A stretch of 64,000 nt of DNA, taken from assembly GCA_964417865.1 (NCBI GenBank), contig CAYQJI010000001.1, forward strand, positions 14,492-78,491, read 5' to 3'. The notes under the pieces are model-generated. The model saw only the letters and a list, made by a program, of their open reading frames with translations. It was not told the origin of the DNA and searched no databases. Source of the stretch: Candidatus Woesearchaeota archaeon (GTDB lineage: Archaea; Nanobdellota; Nanobdellia; Pacearchaeales; GW2011-AR1). How positions within the stretch are numbered: position 1 is the first letter of the stretch; each line of letters begins with the position of its first letter. Made by a program: the position numbers and the translations under genes. Shown here in pieces: positions 7,877-21,595 of the stretch.

Positions 7877-10051
7877 ATGGAAGACAAAAAAATAGATATT
7901 CATGAGATAATTGAGAAACATTCTCAAAGATTACAAAAAGATTTAGACTCTTTTAATAGTATAAAAAAATCTTCTTATAGCAAATCTTATGAATCTTTTA
8001 AAAAAGAAATAAGTCCAGAACCTTCTAATTATGAAAAATGGTGTATTGCTTTAGGTCAAATCATAAAACTAAAAATCTCAAAAAAAGAGGAAGAAGAAAT
8101 TCAAAAAAAATTAGATATAGCTAATTTAGATATAGAACCTTGGCATACTGTTACATTAGCATTTACTTCTTTTCTATTAATCTTTTTTTTAGGATTAATT
8201 TTCTGTTTTGCTCTCTCATATCTAACTGGTAGTGCTTTTCCTGCTGGTCTTTTTATTATGATATGTATTGTTGGAGTTTTTTCTTATCATTTTTTAAGAA
8301 ATTATCCTGATAGAGTTGCTAATAAATGGAGATTAAAAGCTTCTTCACAGATGGTTCCTGCTATTCTATATGTTGTTATCTATATGAGACATACTTCTAA
8401 TTTAGAAAAAGCTATCTCCTTTGCATCAGAACATTTGGAATATCCTTTAAATTTAAATTTTAAAAAAATTTTTTATGATGTTGAAATAGGAAAATTTTCA
8501 ACTATCAAAGAAAGTTTAGATAATTACCTTTCTAGATGGAGAGACTATTCTCCTCAGTTTATTGAATCATTCAATCTCATTGAGAGCAGTTTGTTTGAAC
8601 CTAATGAAGAAAAAAGAATTGACATATTAGAAAAATCTCTACAATTAGTTTTAGATGGCACTTATGATAAAATGTTAAAATTTACTCATGAAGTTAGGAG
8701 TCCATTGACTAATGTTTATATGTTAGGAGTCATTTTACCAACTCTTGCTATTGCTTTATTGCCTATGGCAAATATACTCTTGCAGAACCAGTTGAAAACC
8801 TCTCATGTTTTTGTTTTATTCAATTTAATAGTTCCTTTCCTTGTTTTTTATCTTACTGATAAAATTTTATTTTTGAGACCTGGTGGTCATGGTGAAGTGT
8901 CTTTATTAGAAAAAAATCCCAAATATTATTTATATAAATCCAAAAAACCAATTATTAAAGCTTTTCTTATCTCTTTCCCATTTATTCTTTTAGGGTTAAT
9001 TCCTTTAATTTTTCAATATACTCCTTTGCCTTTATGGCTTAATCTTCAGAGAGATTATACTTTTTCTCAGTTGGGACTTCCTTTTTTTGGAGAAGATACT
9101 TATTTTTTTGGTATAACTGAAGTTGATGGTGTAATTAAAGGGCCTTATGGTATTGGTTCTATGATTTTAAGTATATTTTTTATTTTTGGAGTAGCTTTAT
9201 TTTTTTATATTTCTTTTAAAGGAAAAACTTCTGAATTAAAAAAAGAGAGGGAAAAAACAAAAGAGTTAGAAATTGAATTTAATAATTCTTTATTCCAATT
9301 AGGAAATAAACTTGGAACTGGAACACCCTTGGAGATAGCATTTGGAAAAGTTGCAGAAGACACAAAAGGGTTAAGGACAGAGGATTTTTTCAAAAAAACT
9401 AATTATAATATAACCCAAATGGGAATGAGTGTGGAACAAGCCCTATTTGATAGTAAAAGAGGGGTTTTAATTTATTATCCTTCAAGTTTGGTTTATACAA
9501 GTATGAAAATTCTTGTAGAATCCTCTAAGAAAGGTTCAACAATTGCTGCTTTAAGTTTAGTTAATCTTTCCCAATATGTAAAGAATTTTTATAAGATAAC
9601 TGACAGACTTAAAGATCTGCTTTCAGAAATTATCTCAGATATGAAGAGTAATATGACTTTTTTAGCTCCTATACTCTCTGGAATAATTGTTGGATTATCT
9701 ATGATGATGAGCTCTATTTTAAGTTATATTTCTACTATCAGTAATAATTTTTCAGATGTTTCTTCTTCGCAATTTGGGAATATAGGTTCAATATTAAAAA
9801 TGTTTGAAGGGACAGAAACAATAGCCCCTTATTTCCTGCAAATAATTGTGGGAATTTATCTTATTGAAATAGTTTTTATTTTAACAAAGACTCTGGTTGC
9901 TATAGATTCTGGAGAAGATAAATTAGATCAGATTTATCTAACAGGGATGAATTTAAGGAGAGCAATATTTCTTTATTCTATAATTGCGATAGGCTCTTCT
10001 ATAGCTTTATCATTCTTAAGTTCTTTTGTTCTTTCTGGTTTGATTCAATAA
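7877..10051 (+). CDS. FlaJ/TadC-like pilus assembly platform membrane protein
   Basis: 724 aa polytopic membrane protein immediately downstream of the ATPase. This is the canonical archaeal type-IV pilus gene order. Confidence 0.55.
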   Translation: MEDKKIDIHEIIEKHSQRLQKDLDSFNSIKKSSYSKSYESFKKEISPEPSNYEKWCIALGQIIKLKISKKEEEEIQKKLDIANLDIEPWHTVTLAFTSFLLIFFLGLIFCFALSYLTGSAFPAGLFIMICIVGVFSYHFLRNYPDRVANKWRLKASSQMVPAILYVVIYMRHTSNLEKAISFASEHLEYPLNLNFKKIFYDVEIGKFSTIKESLDNYLSRWRDYSPQFIESFNLIESSLFEPNEEKRIDILEKSLQLVLDGTYDKMLKFTHEVRSPLTNVYMLGVILPTLAIALLPMANILLQNQLKTSHVFVLFNLIVPFLVFYLTDKILFLRPGGHGEVSLLEKNPKYYLYKSKKPIIKAFLISFPFILLGLIPLIFQYTPLPLWLNLQRDYTFSQLGLPFFGEDTYFFGITEVDGVIKGPYGIGSMILSIFFIFGVALFFYISFKGKTSELKKEREKTKELEIEFNNSLFQLGNKLGTGTPLEIAFGKVAEDTKGLRTEDFFKKTNYNITQMGMSVEQALFDSKRGVLIYYPSSLVYTSMKILVESSKKGSTIAALSLVNLSQYVKNFYKITDRLKDLLSEIISDMKSNMTFLAPILSGIIVGLSMMMSSILSYISTISNNFSDVSSSQFGNIGSILKMFEGTETIAPYFLQIIVGIYLIEIVFILTKTLVAIDSGEDKLDQIYLTGMNLRRAIFLYSIIAIGSSIALSFLSSFVLSGLIQ

Positions 10052-16743: not shown

Positions 16744-16857
16744 ATGTCAGATTACGGATTTCCTGAAAAAAGAAACAAAAGAAAAGAAAAAAGAAAAGAA
16801 AAAAAGAAACACCCTTATAAGCAGGGTGGAGCTCAAAGAACTTTTGAAATAAAATAA
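16744..16857 (+). CDS. small highly basic peptide (37 aa), unknown
   Basis: MSDYGFPEKRNKRKEKRKEKKKHPYKQGGAQRTFEIK. Intergenic position, not in ORF track. Confidence 0.15.
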   Translation: MSDYGFPEKRNKRKEKRKEKKKHPYKQGGAQRTFEIK

Positions 16858-16903: not shown

Positions 16904-17758
16904 ATGTATGAAATAATATTTTTATTAATCTTAAGTTTTTGTTATCTTATATTTGCAGTTATTCAAGATTTTAAATCAAGAGAGATTGCAGATTGGCTTA
17001 ATTATTCTTTGATAATCTTTGCTTTAGGTTTTAGGTTTTTTTATTCTTTGTTCAATGAAAATAATTTTAATTTTTTTATCCAAGGATTTATTGGATTTCT
17101 TATTTTTTTAGGATTAGCTAACCTGTTTTATTATTCAAGACTTTTTGCAGGAGGAGATGCAAAACTTATGATGGCTTTAGGAGCAATTTTGCCATTAGAT
17201 TATTCTTTTAGTTCAAATCTCCTTTTATTCCTTAATTTTTTATTTTATTTTTTTATAGCTTCTTTAATTTATGTTTTAATTTCAAGCGTTTTTCTTACAT
17301 TAAAAAATTTTAAATCCTTTAAGATTAAATTTATTAAAGAAGTTAAATTTCAAAAAAGATTGATTATATTATCTTGGTTATTCTTTTTCTTATCAACAAT
17401 TTTAAACTTCGTCTTTTTATCTAAATTCAATTTCGTTTTTTTAGGATTTTTTATTTTAGTTTTAACTTATTCTTATATTTATTCAAAATCTTTAGATGAG
17501 TGTTGTATGATTAAAGAAGTTTTAACTAAAAATTTAACAGAAGGAGACTGGCTTTATAAGGATGTGAGATTAAAAAAAGAAACTATCAAATCTAAATGGG
17601 AGGGTTTAACAAAAGAAGAAATAAGAAAAATAAGATTAGAACTAAAAAAAGTAAAGATAAGACAAGGAATTCCTTTTTCCCCTACTTTTTTATTAGGCTT
17701 TTTGCTTTTTGTGATATCTTATTTTTTTAAAATTAATTTATGGAATCCTCTTTGGTAA
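16904..17758 (+). CDS. prepilin/preflagellin peptidase (A24 family, PibD/FlaK-like)
   Basis: Polytopic membrane protein with the catalytic A24 motif LFAGGDAKLMMALGA and an N-terminal Asp (IQDFKS). Confidence 0.7.
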   Translation: MYEIIFLLILSFCYLIFAVIQDFKSREIADWLNYSLIIFALGFRFFYSLFNENNFNFFIQGFIGFLIFLGLANLFYYSRLFAGGDAKLMMALGAILPLDYSFSSNLLLFLNFLFYFFIASLIYVLISSVFLTLKNFKSFKIKFIKEVKFQKRLIILSWLFFFLSTILNFVFLSKFNFVFLGFFILVLTYSYIYSKSLDECCMIKEVLTKNLTEGDWLYKDVRLKKETIKSKWEGLTKEEIRKIRLELKKVKIRQGIPFSPTFLLGFLLFVISYFFKINLWNPLW

Positions 17759-18346
17759 CCAGATGTTCTCTTCTTTAATTTCTTCTTCGTTTTCTTCTTT
17801 TGATTCTTCTTTATCAGAATCTTTTTTATCCTCTTTTAGAATTTTTTCTTTTATCTTTTCAAGCTCTTCAATACTCTTTTTTTCTTTTTTTAATTCTTTA
17901 TCTTTATAGATTGGAATTAAATTTATTAATTCATGATTAAAAATGGATTGTTTTTCAACTTTCACTTCTAAGGGCATTAAATTTTTTTCTATTTTTTCTT
18001 TTATTTTTTGAGCTAATAAAAGAGTGGATTCTTTCACTTTACCATGAGATTTTGGAATTATAAAAGAATTCCCTTCTGAGAGGGGATTTATATCCAAAAC
18101 GCCTAAATTTTCTTCATCTTCCTCTAAAATGCAAGAAGGTATTTTTTTTGAACTTATTAAGCAAAAAATACACTCATTATCTTCAAATAAAATATTATTT
18201 TTTTCTAAAAAACTAGCCAATTCTTCTTTATCCATAGAATCTAATCTACTTAAAGAACTTAATTTTTTATCTTCTGGAAAATTACTATTTATATAAGAGA
18301 TTAGTTTTTCTTTTATTTCTTTAAATTCTTCTTCTGAAATTTCCAT
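17738..18346 (-). CDS. HIT-like protein with KE-rich C-terminal tail
   Basis: CIFCLI...IIPKSHG resembles the HIT fold N-terminus; weak. Confidence 0.3.
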   Translation of the reverse strand: MEISEEEFKEIKEKLISYINSNFPEDKKLSSLSRLDSMDKEELASFLEKNNILFEDNECIFCLISSKKIPSCILEEDEENLGVLDINPLSEGNSFIIPKSHGKVKESTLLLAQKIKEKIEKNLMPLEVKVEKQSIFNHELINLIPIYKDKELKKEKKSIEELEKIKEKILKEDKKDSDKEESKEENEEEIKEENIWLPKRIP

Positions 18347-18721: not shown

Positions 18722-18763
18722 CTGGACTTCTAAAATTATGAAACAAAACATTTAAATAGTATT

Positions 18764-18779
18764 ATGAATATATATTCAT
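18764..18779. promoter_or_regulatory. perfect 16-bp palindrome ATGAATATATATTCAT, putative operator between TATA and the DUF5320 gene
   Basis: Seen directly. Preceded by tttaaatag (TATA-like). Second copy at 19112. Confidence 0.5.
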
Positions 18780-18810
18780 AACTAAATAAACACAATTTGG
18801 AGGAAACAAA

Positions 18811-19059
18811 ATGCCAAGACAAGACGGAACAGGACCAAATGGGCAAGGGGCTATGACTGGAAGAGGTTTAGGACCTTGTGGAGGAGGTATGCGTAGAGGA
18901 TTTGGCAGAGGAATGGGTTGGAGATTCTGGGGAAGATCCCAATACAGCAAGCCCGTTAATCTGACCAAAACAGAAGAAAAGAAAATCCTTGAAGCAGAAC
19001 TTAAAGAAATTGATTTGGAAAAGCAAGAAATAGAAGAAAGGCTTAAAGAAATTAAATAA
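18811..19059 (+). CDS. DUF5320-like small protein (MPRxDGTGPxG Gly/Arg-rich N-terminus, coiled-coil C-terminus)
   Basis: MPRQDGTGPNGQGAMTGRGLGPCGGG. SD-like GGAGG 10 nt upstream. Confidence 0.45.
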   Translation: MPRQDGTGPNGQGAMTGRGLGPCGGGMRRGFGRGMGWRFWGRSQYSKPVNLTKTEEKKILEAELKEIDLEKQEIEERLKEIK

Positions 19060-19111
19060 GCCTTCTTCTTGTCTTTTTCTTTTTTTATTTTAGTAAAATT
19101 TAAATAGAAAT

Positions 19112-19127
19112 ATGAATAAATATTCAT
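19112..19127. promoter_or_regulatory. near-palindrome ATGAATAAATATTCAT overlapping the start of the DUF134 gene
   Basis: Half-sites ATGAATA/TATTCAT identical to 18764. The same tttaaatag box lies 8 nt upstream. Confidence 0.5.
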
Positions 19128-19128
19128 T

Positions 19129-19419
19129 ATGGTAAGACCAAGATTATGCAGGAGAGTTAGGTTTAATCCAGATGTTACTTATTTTAAACCAAGAGGAATC
19201 CCTTTAAGTGAATTGGAAGAAGTAGTTTTACTTGTAGATGAATATGAAGCAGTTAGATTAAAAGATTTAGAAGGATTAAAACAAGAAGAATGTGCTAAAA
19301 AAATGAATATTTCTCAGCCAACATTTCATAGGTTAGTTTTATCAGCAAGAAAAAAAATATGTGATGCAATAGTTAATGGAAAGGCAATAAAAATAGGAGG
19401 GGGAAATTATAAAATATGA
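19129..19419 (+). CDS. DUF134/UPF0251-family HTH DNA-binding protein (sigma-70 region-4-like)
   Basis: RVRFNPDVTYFKPRGIP...AKKMNISQPTFHRLV. Confidence 0.55.
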   Translation: MVRPRLCRRVRFNPDVTYFKPRGIPLSELEEVVLLVDEYEAVRLKDLEGLKQEECAKKMNISQPTFHRLVLSARKKICDAIVNGKAIKIGGGNYKI

Positions 19420-19444
19420 ACAATTAAAACTTTTATTTTTTGGA

Positions 19445-20527
19445 TTGTTATTAATCTTAATAACTGCTAATTTTGTGAGTGCCCAAAATTCAACTTGTAT
19501 TTATTTTTTTTATGGAGATGGTTGCCAACATTGTGCTAAAGTTGAGTCATTTATAAACAACCTAGAATTATATTCCCAATCTTCTCTTGATATTCATAGA
19601 TTTGAAATTTATAACAATCGTTCAAATATGCTTTTATTGAATCAATATTTTGATGTTTATAATATATCTAATTCCGAAAGAGGAATACCTGCCGTTTTAA
19701 TTGGCGAAAGTTATCTTATAGGAGATAGCCCAATCTCGGAGAATCTTATTGAATTAATAGGACAGAATCATGGAGCAGAATGCCCTGATTTTCAAACAAC
19801 AAATGGGGAAGGCAAGACAGGAAATACTTCCCCCATGGAAAAATTAAATTCATTATCCATCTTAACCGTTGTGGGAGCAGCACTGGTAGATTCAATAAAT
19901 CCATGTGCTATTGCCGTTTTGTTAATTTTAATGAGTGCTTTGTTAGTTGCAGGAGATAAAAAGAAAGCAATTAAAGCAGGTTTTGCTTTTACTATTTCAA
20001 TCTATATCGCTTATTTTTTGTTTGGATTGGGATTATTTTCAGCGATTCAAGTTTCAGGTCTTTCTTATTGGTTCTATAAAATAATTGGAGTTTTGGCAAT
20101 AGTAATAGGATTAGCAAATATCAAAGATTTCTTTTGTTATGGTGGCGGAGGTTTTGTTATGGAAATCCCAAGAGGCTGGAGACCCAAATTAAAAGAAATG
20201 TTAGGGAAAGTTACAACCCCTTTAGGAGCGTTTTTAATGGGTTTTGTAGTTTGCTTATTTGAGTTGCCTTGCACAGGCGGACCTTATATTGTTATCTTGG
20301 GGTTATTAGCAGATAGAATGACTATGTGGGCTTCAATTCCTCTTTTGTTATTGTATAATTTAGTATTTGTATTGCCCTTAATTATAATTACTCTGTTAAT
20401 TTATTTTGGCTTTGCTAATGTAGAAAAAGCAACAAAATGGAAGGACAATAATTTAAGAATTTTACACTTAATTGCAGGAGTAGTTATGTTGGCTTTGGGA
20501 ATCTTGATTACTTTTGGATTTGTTTAG
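19445..20527 (+). CDS. thiol:disulfide oxidoreductase fusion: extracytoplasmic thioredoxin-like domain + CcdA/DsbD transmembrane domain
   Basis: Signal/TM then CxxC (DGCQHCAK). Membrane domain has the two conserved Cys in INPCAIAVLL and ELPCTGGPY. Confidence 0.65.
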   Translation: MLLILITANFVSAQNSTCIYFFYGDGCQHCAKVESFINNLELYSQSSLDIHRFEIYNNRSNMLLLNQYFDVYNISNSERGIPAVLIGESYLIGDSPISENLIELIGQNHGAECPDFQTTNGEGKTGNTSPMEKLNSLSILTVVGAALVDSINPCAIAVLLILMSALLVAGDKKKAIKAGFAFTISIYIAYFLFGLGLFSAIQVSGLSYWFYKIIGVLAIVIGLANIKDFFCYGGGGFVMEIPRGWRPKLKEMLGKVTTPLGAFLMGFVVCLFELPCTGGPYIVILGLLADRMTMWASIPLLLLYNLVFVLPLIIITLLIYFGFANVEKATKWKDNNLRILHLIAGVVMLALGILITFGFV

Positions 20528-20531
20528 TAAT

Positions 20532-21404
20532 TTATGCACTTGCTAATTTAATTAAACCAAGCCACCTATTTTCTCCCAAGTTTAAATCTTGCCCTGCTAA
20601 TTCACAAGGAACACTATTTGTTGAACAATGTTTCTCTATAAAATTATGTTGAATTGTTAATCCAACCATGATGATTGGAGCAGACCAGAGAGCTTTTAAT
20701 CCTCTAAAATCATGCACTCTATCCTTAATTTTCATAAACACCGTTTCAATTTTATAGTTATGTACCTTTGTTCTTCGTACATTTTGTATTTTATGTTCCA
20801 CTACTAAACCTCCAAGCTTATTAGAATAGAATAGTTTTTTAAAAGCACGAGGGTAAAATTGTGCAGAATCTGTTTGTATAAACTTTGGCTTCCCCTTACC
20901 TACTGCTTTATTTATAAAAATTTTGGCTTCTTGGATTGTTGTTTGAGTAGAATAATGCACTCCTGTAATTAATCTAGTATTCCAGTCTACACAAGCCCAG
21001 AAATTATCTTTATGCCCCAATCTATTAATTTCGGTTTCATCTGCATAGAAAGAATCTCCAAGGTTATATCCTAATTTTTCTACAAAATTATGTACTTTCA
21101 AACTATATTTTCGCACCCAATCTAAAATAGAATTATGAGATACTTTGGTTTTGAAATGTCTATTTAATTGATTTCTCATTTTTCTACTTGAAAGATTAGA
21201 TAAATACATATCTATAGATAAGGTAATTGTCTCAGATGAGAATCGCATTCTATAAAACCCTTCATCATTTGTAAAAAATTTGTGACAAGATTTACAATAA
21301 TATTTTTGTATTTTCCCTCGGTGTTCTGTTTTTCTAAATCCTTTCTTTAGAAAACTTGTACTTGAACAATGTTTGCACTTTATCATACCTATATTCAGGT
21401 ACAT
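20532..21404 (-). CDS. IS6-family DDE transposase with N-terminal zinc finger (true start probably Met at 21386: MIKCKHC)
   Basis: CKHCSS...YYCKSCHKFF zinc finger. FYADETEI...WACVDWNTRLITG matches the IS6 DDE core. The first ATG lies inside the promoter repeat. Confidence 0.7.
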   Translation of the reverse strand: MYLNIGMIKCKHCSSTSFLKKGFRKTEHRGKIQKYYCKSCHKFFTNDEGFYRMRFSSETITLSIDMYLSNLSSRKMRNQLNRHFKTKVSHNSILDWVRKYSLKVHNFVEKLGYNLGDSFYADETEINRLGHKDNFWACVDWNTRLITGVHYSTQTTIQEAKIFINKAVGKGKPKFIQTDSAQFYPRAFKKLFYSNKLGGLVVEHKIQNVRRTKVHNYKIETVFMKIKDRVHDFRGLKALWSAPIIMVGLTIQHNFIEKHCSTNSVPCELAGQDLNLGENRWLGLIKLASA

Positions 21405-21437: not shown

Positions 21438-21595
21438 TATGCTTCTTCTAAAATTATTTTTCCTTTTTCAACTCTTGCTTTTAACTCTTTACCAAGGAGT
21501 TTTGAATCCTTAACTACCTCTTTTGGTAAAGTGGTGATATATCTTGTGTATTCTGTACTCCCCACTTTTTTATCTAAAACCTCTCGTATCTTCAT
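21437..21595 (-). CDS. small AbrB/MazE-like (swapped-hairpin) protein, 52 aa
   Basis: MKIREVLDKKVGSTEYTRYITTLPKEVVKDSKLLGKELKARVEKGKIILEEA. Flanked by the two promoter repeats; not in ORF track. Confidence 0.35.
   Translation of the reverse strand: MKIREVLDKKVGSTEYTRYITTLPKEVVKDSKLLGKELKARVEKGKIILEEA

Follow-up and report, generated by a model that had tools for sequence, protein, structure and literature searches.

Paired palindromic operators in the promoters of a DUF5320-DUF134 gene pair of a Pacearchaeales archaeon and their probable recognition by the DUF134 protein

In a stretch of 64,000 nucleotides (nt) from a Candidatus Woesearchaeota archaeon of the Pacearchaeales (assembly GCA_964417865.1, contig CAYQJI010000001.1, positions 14,492 to 78,491; hereafter the window, to whose numbering all positions refer), two small genes of the families DUF5320 and DUF134 stand one behind the other, each preceded by nearly the same palindrome in the space between its TATA box and its predicted transcription start. 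Which protein reads these palindromes, and with what effect on the two genes? Sequence comparison points to the DUF134 protein itself, which would bind both palindromes and repress transcription, a reading to which we give a probability of roughly 80%. The mechanism would be ordinary, that of an autoregulated helix-turn-helix (HTH) repressor occluding its own promoter; what appears to be new is that an operator and a core regulon become assignable to the DUF134 and DUF5320 families, that the specificity-determining residue is predictable (Q or R at position 2 of the recognition helix), and that the operator is conserved almost base for base in archaea and bacteria, within two core-promoter architectures. 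Both families are of unknown function and thus gain a first testable role, which for DUF134 is that of a sequence-specific repressor. No description of DUF134, UPF0251, DUF5320 or the operator was found in the literature searched, subscription-only papers being outside the search.

Arrangement of the two promoters

The elements on which the argument depends are, in order along the window:

18751-18758, plus strand: TATA box TTTAAATA of promoter P1, after an A-rich stretch resembling a transcription factor B recognition element (BRE); archaeal-type consensus aAAnnTTTAAATAnTATT
18762-18781, no strand: operator O1, TTATGAATATATATTCATAA, between the TATA box and a predicted transcription start near 18781
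18799-18803, plus strand: Shine-Dalgarno sequence GGAGG of the DUF5320 gene, 7 nt before the ATG, recurring at related DUF5320 starts
18811-19059, plus strand: DUF5320 gene, 82 amino acids (Pfam PF17253, 54.5 bits against a cut-off of 27, full length)
19074-19093, plus strand: TTTTTCTTTTTTTATTTTAG, a T-rich tract past the DUF5320 stop codon; in 37 archaeal DUF134 promoters the consensus is likewise T-rich upstream of the P2 position
19099-19106, plus strand: TATA box TTTAAATA of promoter P2, assigned from the sequence and the archaeal promoter consensus
19110-19129, no strand: operator O2, ATATGAATAAATATTCATTA, with core ATGAATAAATATTCAT and both arms intact
19129-19419, plus strand: DUF134 (UPF0251) gene, 96 amino acids (Pfam PF02001, COG1342; 97.5 bits against a cut-off of 27, residues 2-96)

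The core of O1, ATGAATATATATTCAT (18764-18779), is a perfect 16-bp palindrome that its flanks extend to a perfect 20-mer, and the symmetry of the second 16-bp copy (19112-19127) is broken by the central dinucleotide alone, a place that is taken by AA, AG, CT or AT in other loci. Each copy stands behind the same 9-mer, TTTAAATAG (18751-18759 and 19099-19107), and the block common to both promoters extends from the TATA box through the palindrome. A preliminary description of this DNA had drawn attention to the paired palindromes, the identical TATA-like boxes, the membership of the two genes in DUF5320 and DUF134, and the contact between the second palindrome and the DUF134 start codon, from which a single nucleotide (T19128) separates its core; all of these features read as described. 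The distance from box to palindrome, given there as 6-8 bp, is in fact 4 nt from the end of the 9-mer or 5 nt from the end of the 8-bp TATA box.

The same description had asked whether the motif is simply frequent in AT-rich DNA. Exact matches to ATGAATANNTATTCAT occur twice in the window, which has a G+C content of 26%, and not once in 100 dinucleotide-preserving shuffles, so it is not a random AT-rich motif. When up to two mismatches are allowed, it is no commoner than chance predicts (3 matches versus 2.48). The only weaker matches, at 7888 and 13965, are within coding sequence, and the 64 kb show no further regulon member.

Counted from the end of the TATA box, the DUF134 start codon begins at the 23rd nucleotide. 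Archaeal TATA boxes are usually centred near -26/-27; because the TATA-to-ATG distance fits this spacing and leaves no space for a Shine-Dalgarno sequence, the DUF134 mRNA is probably leaderless and would start at A19129. The T-rich tract between the two genes is likely an archaeal oligo-T terminator that separates two transcription units. Scans of the window for sigma70 promoters and intrinsic terminators gave nothing above shuffle level, as expected for an archaeon. Looping between O1 and O2 is unsupported: the two operators are 303-368 bp apart across loci, with no helical phasing.

Conservation of the operator in archaea and bacteria

Two collections of sequence were compared with the window: 80 genome loci (433 kb in total) retrieved by DUF134 protein homology alone, and at least 120 metagenome contigs retrieved by exact matches to the 20-mer of O1. 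A palindrome lies just upstream of DUF134 in most of the genome loci where this gene opens a transcription unit. It takes the form TTATGAATAnnTATTCATAA in DPANN archaea, Methanocellales, Bathyarchaeia, Thermococci and Micrarchaeota, ATG(G/A)ACATATGTTCAT in several uncultured archaea, and ATGAGCATATGCTCAT in Ignavibacteria, Zixibacteria and other bacteria, giving the overall operator consensus TTATGA(A/G)(T/C)ATAT(A/G)(T/C)TCATAA. The identical 16-mer precedes DUF5320 in most of the 80 loci. Because most DPANN loci have a second site, a perfect ATGAATATATATTCAT, 300-400 bp upstream, before the DUF5320 gene, the two-operator layout is the standard one for the module.

Sites resembling the operator are concentrated at these two genes. 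In the genome loci, 97 of 111 are directly upstream of DUF5320 or DUF134, a count made up of 89 assigned automatically to starts of either gene and 8 listed directly upstream of DUF134. A site occurs within 150 nt upstream of 43 of 76 DUF5320-like open reading frames (ORFs; 57%) and 36 of 72 DUF134 ORFs (50%), compared with 3.3% of other ORFs. Immediately downstream of the 20-mer in the 120 metagenome contigs listed, a regular expression recognized DUF5320 in 63 and DUF134 in 29; several of the remainder are DUF5320 by inspection, or are truncated at contig ends. On the same contigs, 57 sites stand behind a TATA box and 24 behind a TTGAC -35 element.

Operator variants that contain G and C accompany a reversed gene order, in which DUF134 leads, one to three DUF5320 paralogues stand behind it, and the only operator precedes DUF134 (loci L043, L050, L053-L056, L058, L059, L063, L065, L068, L072, L077 and L080). 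The two-gene operator module of the preliminary description therefore holds, its layout recurring in DPANN and other archaeal loci that were retrieved by protein homology, but its scope had been understated: the operator is shared by archaea and bacteria, and the module probably takes in a third gene, downstream of DUF134, that encodes a thioredoxin (Trx)/DsbD-like protein.

Probable recognition of the operator by DUF134

The DUF134 protein also matches Pfam Sigma70_r4_2 (28.4 bits), and its AlphaFold2 model (predicted local distance difference test score 79.5 overall, 87-93 over most of the helical core) contains a three-helix HTH at residues 36-83, flanked by an N-terminal beta-hairpin and by a strand at residues 86-89. 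The recognition helix, ISQPTFHRLV, occupies residues 61-70. The top matches of the model in the PDB (Foldseek) are region 4 of extracytoplasmic function (ECF) sigma factors and the DNA-binding domain of Bacillus subtilis DeoR; a sequence search found no PDB relative outside the HTH. The family is large, with 2688 homologues at E<=1e-5 and 4200 clusters (50% identity) at E<=1e-3, and in its long forms a Cys4 zinc ribbon or NifX-like domain is added at the C-terminus. Those proteins most closely related to the one in the window bear the annotation Pacearchaeota or Nanoarchaeota, in keeping with a DPANN archaeon as its source. One protein of 2316 amino acids in the representative library (P0246) has nine separate stretches that match residues 43-88 of the DUF134 HTH.

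The proposal that the HTH protein binds the operator, made from the window, is supported by covariation between the recognition helix and the operator bases. Helices of the type SQxT pair with T at position 6 of the half-site (ATGAAT) in 50 of 50 half-sites from the genome loci, and those of the type SRxT with C (ATGA(G/A)C) in 36 of 38. The R-type helices divide further according to the base at position 5, which is G (GAGC) in 23 of 24 cases with FGR and A (GAAC) in 11 of 14 with FHR or FQR. Where a class-A operator stands before DUF134 in the metagenomes, the helix is of the SQ type in 23 of 23. Since the SQ and SR types are each found in archaeal and bacterial records, the correlation is not simply one split between lineages, and it agrees with the classical pairings of glutamine with an A:T pair and of arginine with a G:C pair.

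The covarying position can be placed on a known structure. The DUF134 HTH and the DNA-binding domain of DeoR (PDB 7bhy and 8r7y) are 38% identical over 40 residues and superimpose with a root-mean-square deviation of 0.6-0.8 Å, with phmmer giving E=0.078 by sequence. DeoR recognizes a left half-operator, 5'-ATTGAACAAAATTTCAAT-3', of the architecture TGAA-N6-TTCA, in which R39 contacts G4 and T14 while R34 contacts T12; the strand that follows its HTH is the dimer interface (PMC11229326). R34 aligns with Q63 of DUF134 and R39 with the invariant R68, the DeoR residue numbers being derived from the chain offsets of 7bhy_A and 8r7y_A. By symmetry T12 is the counterpart of half-site position 6, and G4 corresponds to the invariant G of TGAA. 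Because R34 and Q63, and likewise T12 and position 6, correspond, the covariation maps onto a contact in the homologous DeoR complex. These comparisons are strong indirect evidence that DUF134 itself would read the palindrome as a dimer, and the modelled beta-strand after its HTH is a possible dimerization element.

That the bases covary with the helix of DUF134, at the very position that contacts DNA in DeoR, makes it improbable that the palindromes are bound instead by DUF5320, or by an obligate DUF134-DUF5320 complex of which DUF5320 is the DNA-binding or specificity subunit. This alternative draws on the fact that DUF5320 is the commonest gene behind the perfect operator and is present with DUF134 in 61 of the 80 genome loci, and on a loose likeness of its Arg/Gly-rich N-terminus and long C-terminal helix to basic-region/coiled-coil proteins; yet in 7 of 21 class B/C loci operator and DUF134 are retained although the locus lacks DUF5320, and DUF5320 has no recognizable DNA-binding fold and no relative that could be found in the PDB. 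Its AlphaFold2 model consists of a low-confidence N-terminal half without secondary structure and a helix at residues 53-81, and is otherwise uninformative. The N-terminal motif of the family, MPxxDGTGPxGxGxxTGRGLGPCG, includes its one invariant cysteine. No significant similarity links DUF5320 to the G/R-rich tail of the long DUF134 forms, and the Cys4 zinc ribbon alone is common to those forms and to a protein of locus L015 that bears the DUF5320 N-terminal motif (E=2e-13).

A highly conserved mini-ORF of 43-48 amino acids, MPNKDGTGPRSGSxGPRDGRGQGKGRAxGKGIGKKKGGKKGxC, also follows the perfect operator in several loci (L004 371, L018 1919, L023 2478, L025 2553, L082, L092, L106, L107, L113, L122 and L194). 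It has no Pfam match; it shares the N-terminal motif of DUF5320, lacks the coiled-coil helix, and ends in a cysteine.

Promoter geometry and the direction of regulation

Archaeal-type promoters of the module conform to the consensus aAAnnTTTAAATAnTATT followed by the palindrome. The gap between TATA box and palindrome is 5 nt, the modal value, in 55 of 76 DUF5320 promoters, and is the same in 18 of 37 archaeal-type DUF134 promoters. The palindrome ends 0-4 nt before the start codon in 30 of 37 archaeal DUF134 promoters; the ATG of DUF5320 lies 13-44 nt past the palindrome, with GGAGG before it. O2, between the TATA box at 19099-19106 and the ATG at 19129, is accordingly an inverted repeat that overlaps the core promoter of the presumed regulator's own gene.

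In bacterial-type promoters, the distance from TTGACA to the 16-mer falls into two discrete classes about one helical turn apart. With 10 nt (n=15), the operator centre TATATT takes the expected place of the -10 hexamer; with 21 nt (n=8), the -10 element reads TAttAT and overlaps the operator at its left edge. These bacterial-type loci are L057 and L078 together with the metagenome loci L088, L100, L114, L115, L127, L148, L150-L153, L166, L171, L174, L180-L182, L189, L192 and L198. In both domains, then, the operator covers the stretch around the start site on which RNA polymerase depends, which is a position for a repressor. Archaeal activators bind upstream of the BRE and TATA box, and bacterial class I and II activators at or upstream of -35.

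Archaeal sites follow the TATA box and cover the predicted start, and bacterial ones cover both the -10 element and the start; placed in this way, DUF134 would have little room to act as an activator or dual regulator. Such a role, which we consider slightly less probable still than binding by DUF5320, takes its appeal from the resemblance of the HTH to the part of bacterial sigma factors, region 4, that recruits polymerase; DeoR, the closest characterized HTH, is a repressor.

The palindromes are very unlikely to act in RNA, as a 5' hairpin affecting stability, termination or translation. The O1 region folds at -5.7 kcal/mol (z = -2.7), as such a hairpin might, but O2 reaches only -2.3 kcal/mol and 35 of 200 shuffles fold as well; both operators are upstream of the predicted start sites and are held in a fixed register with the TATA box or -35 element. 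Moreover, what is conserved is the sequence, with nearly invariant arms whose differences track the recognition helix, whereas an RNA stem tolerates arbitrary compensatory pairs. An origin by chance in a genome of 26% G+C, or as inverted-repeat remnants of a mobile element without regulatory role, as the frequency of the two-mismatch motif and an IS240-type transposase gene 1.4 kb downstream might suggest, is refuted by the shuffles (2 exact copies versus 0 expected), the genome loci and the metagenome scan, which place the same 16-20-mer at the same promoter position on unrelated contigs that number in the hundreds, come from two domains and have G+C contents of 26-62%.

Proposed mechanism

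The preferred reading remains repression by DUF134 bound at O1 and O2. The protein would be a small HTH regulator of the sigma-region-4 or DeoR DNA-binding-domain type, dimeric by homology, each of whose recognition helices would read one TGAAT half-site of TGAAT-N4-ATTCA. To judge from its position, the operator would fill the space between TATA box and start, so that with DUF134 bound the TATA-binding protein (TBP) and transcription factor B (TFB) might still sit on the promoter while recruitment of RNA polymerase or formation of the open complex would be blocked. O1, the perfect 20-bp palindrome, would control a monocistronic DUF5320 gene. O2, with its asymmetric centre, would control the leaderless DUF134 transcript, which probably runs on into the Trx/DsbD-like gene; because O2 would thus govern the transcript of DUF134 itself, the protein is predicted to be negatively autoregulated.

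Several points weigh against this reading. The whole case is one of sequence comparison, and the negative effect on transcription is deduced from the position of the operators. The covariation between helix and operator is partly confounded by phylogeny, with few independent switches that can be counted. The DeoR contacts come from 3.7 Å data on the complex with OL18, for which the authors flag limited confidence (PMC11229326). The assignment of the TATA boxes draws on consensus and conservation, TTTAAATAG not being enriched in the window (4 found versus 6.9 expected). To our knowledge, the promoter architecture of DPANN archaea has not been characterized experimentally. The two genes occur together in 61 of the 80 loci, so that the species that actually binds DNA could be a complex of DUF134 with DUF5320. 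Finally, the 64 kb window contains two sites only, neither of which has an iron or Fe-S target behind it, and the signal discussed below is a guess from neighbouring genes.

Relation to known regulators

DeoR of B. subtilis (PDB 7bhy, 8r7y) is the nearest characterized likeness. It too has a compact HTH followed by a beta-strand, the DeoR-type arrangement of HTH and beta-linker being present in the DUF134 model with its strand at 86-89; it recognizes a 16-bp palindrome of the form TGAA-N6-TTCA, as DUF134 is predicted to do (ATTGAACAAAATTTCAAT for DeoR, ATGAATAAATATTCAT for DUF134), with a helix ISRPTVSRLL where DUF134 has ISQPTFHRLV; and both would act at promoters, DeoR as a repressor and DUF134 in a predicted role of the same kind. 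DUF134 lacks the sugar-phosphate effector domain of about 250 amino acids that defines the SorC family and, unlike DeoR, has an additional conserved N-terminal segment (MxRPRxCRRV...YFKPxG), modelled as the beta-hairpin, and is also archaeal. The DeoR operator is 39 bp long, extends from -60 to -21 and is occupied by a tetramer, whereas the DUF134 sites are single 16-20-bp palindromes over the start site. Membership of DUF134 in the SorC family was considered and rejected, the 96-residue protein having DUF134 and sigma-4-like matches only; its relationship is with the DNA-binding domain alone.

The resemblance to ECF sigma region 4 (Escherichia coli SigmaE, PDB 2h27) is close over 45-48 residues, with a template modelling score of 0.65-0.72 (target-normalised) and a root-mean-square deviation of 0.5-0.9 Å. 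DUF134 differs in that it would bind a palindrome, presumably as a dimer, and not a single -35 element within the RNA polymerase holoenzyme. The sigma-like match comprises region 4 only (residues 34-80), and scores against NCBIfam sigma70-ECF models are far below their cut-offs. Archaea have no sigma factors. Identification of DUF134 as an ECF sigma factor was rejected, sigma region 2 being absent and the host being archaeal. The pairing of ECF sigma factors with anti-sigma factors offers an analogy only, in that a sigma-4-like protein stands beside a small cysteine-containing partner, both genes being under the site of the DNA-binding protein; DUF5320 lacks the zinc-binding anti-sigma (ZAS) motif HxxxCxxC and has a single invariant cysteine, and the analogy does not imply that DUF5320 binds DUF134.

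Repressors of archaea such as MDR1 of Archaeoglobus, LrpA and Phr of Pyrococcus and NrpR of Methanococcus, which belong to the DtxR, Lrp/AsnC and winged-HTH families, bind between the TATA box and the start and block recruitment of RNA polymerase, and MDR1 and LrpA autoregulate their own operons. The DUF134 module resembles them in having a palindromic operator directly past the TATA box, overlapping the start, and in its predicted autoregulation. For none of them is an operator known to be shared by archaea and bacteria, unlike that of DUF134, whose conservation across domains, with one operator set in two core-promoter architectures, is a useful natural experiment. DPANN archaea have tiny genomes with very few recognizable regulators, and we know of none that is experimentally tractable; the occurrence of the operator in Thermococci, Methanocellales and Bathyarchaeia means that orthologues from cultivable relatives could be used instead.

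A predicted wider regulon and a possible signal

Beyond the two core genes, the operator precedes genes for an EncFtn-like ferritin (L004, L018), a Mrp/NUBPL Fe-S carrier ATPase (L028, L160), Nitro_FeMo-Co or NifX-like proteins with a divergent ZIP transporter gene (L079, L130), and Cys4 zinc-ribbon proteins (L155, L159). In two further loci (L133 1156, L136 6272) it lies between an ORF for a cysteine-rich, metallothionein-like protein of 35-43 amino acids and a divergent gene for a DsbD_2-type permease, an arrangement that suggests a metal-handling branch of the regulon. The predicted core regulon thus comprises DUF5320, DUF134, Trx/DsbD-like, EncFtn-like, Mrp/NUBPL and NifX-like genes. The neighbours of DUF134 in the 80 loci are of similar kinds: Nitro_FeMo-Co proteins in 32, Mrp/NUBPL in 14, MinD with a 4Fe-4S insert (Fer4) in 13, EncFtn-like proteins in 10, ZIP transporters in 6 and FeoB in 3.

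Because the genes linked to the operator and those adjoining DUF134 handle iron, Fe-S clusters, metals and thiols, it may be speculated that the signal is iron, Fe-S, metal or thiol-redox status. As the 96-residue DUF134 has no ligand domain, this signal might enter through DUF5320, with its one invariant cysteine and coiled-coil-like helix, or through the domains fused to DUF134, either of which is speculatively the sensor. A broader proposal, which we hold tentatively and at well under even odds, is that DUF134 and DUF5320 together make up a portable switch, sensor plus repressor, that answers to iron, Fe-S, metal or thiol-redox status and has passed between archaea and bacteria while its 20-bp operator stayed essentially the same. 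Such a switch would work equally in core promoters dependent on TBP and TFB and in those dependent on sigma70; DUF5320 would be a sensing or anti-repressor subunit, acting as an anti-sigma factor does on a sigma-4-like domain, and elsewhere the Cys4 zinc ribbon or NifX-like domain fused to DUF134 would take its place.

Two other genes were found at operators. Pyruvoyl-dependent arginine decarboxylase (PdaD, PF01862) is encoded behind the operator in two loci (L086 1006, L132 4559) and adjoins DUF134 in L002 and four other genome loci, with no evident connection to the rest of the regulon. In L016 (1814) and L021 (1813), the operator is 3-4 nt before the ATG of a gene, situated between DUF5320 and DUF134, for a membrane-anchored protein of 385-388 amino acids with a weak polysaccharide-deacetylase match, below the cut-off.

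The Trx/DsbD-like gene and other neighbours in the window

Immediately downstream of the pair is the following gene:

19445-20527, plus strand: Trx-like/DsbD-like gene, 25 nt after the DUF134 stop codon (Pfam SfLAP, DsbD_TM, DsbD_2)

Its product has a secreted thioredoxin-like domain with a CxxC motif fused to a DsbD/CcdA-type membrane domain. In 22-23 of the 80 genome loci DUF134 has such a homologue beside it, as a rule 25-50 nt downstream; in Micrarchaeota the homologue is divergent from DUF134, with the operator between them. Since other loci show the same spacing of about 25 nt, the gene is probably co-transcribed with DUF134. An oligo-T run, CTTTTATTTTTT (19430-19441), lies in this gap and might be a partial terminator or attenuator within the presumed operon.

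Upstream of the module are a 202-amino-acid ORF for an acidic, Lys/Glu-rich protein with no Pfam match (17738-18346, minus strand) and a 37-amino-acid ORF for a highly basic one, MSDYGFPEKRNKRKEKRKEKKKHPYKQGGAQRTFEIK (16744-16857, plus strand). Neither is a conserved neighbour of DUF134, and tblastn with the 202-amino-acid ORF gave zero matches in the related loci. Downstream, the IS240-type DDE transposase gene (PF13610; 20532-21404, minus strand) converges on the end of the Trx/DsbD-like gene; near it there is only a weak 20-nt inverted repeat of 80% complementarity (20839-20858 and 21465-21484). The proteins encoded near the module in the window include aEF-1beta, an RPA-like OB-fold protein and a prepilin peptidase, and are archaeal.

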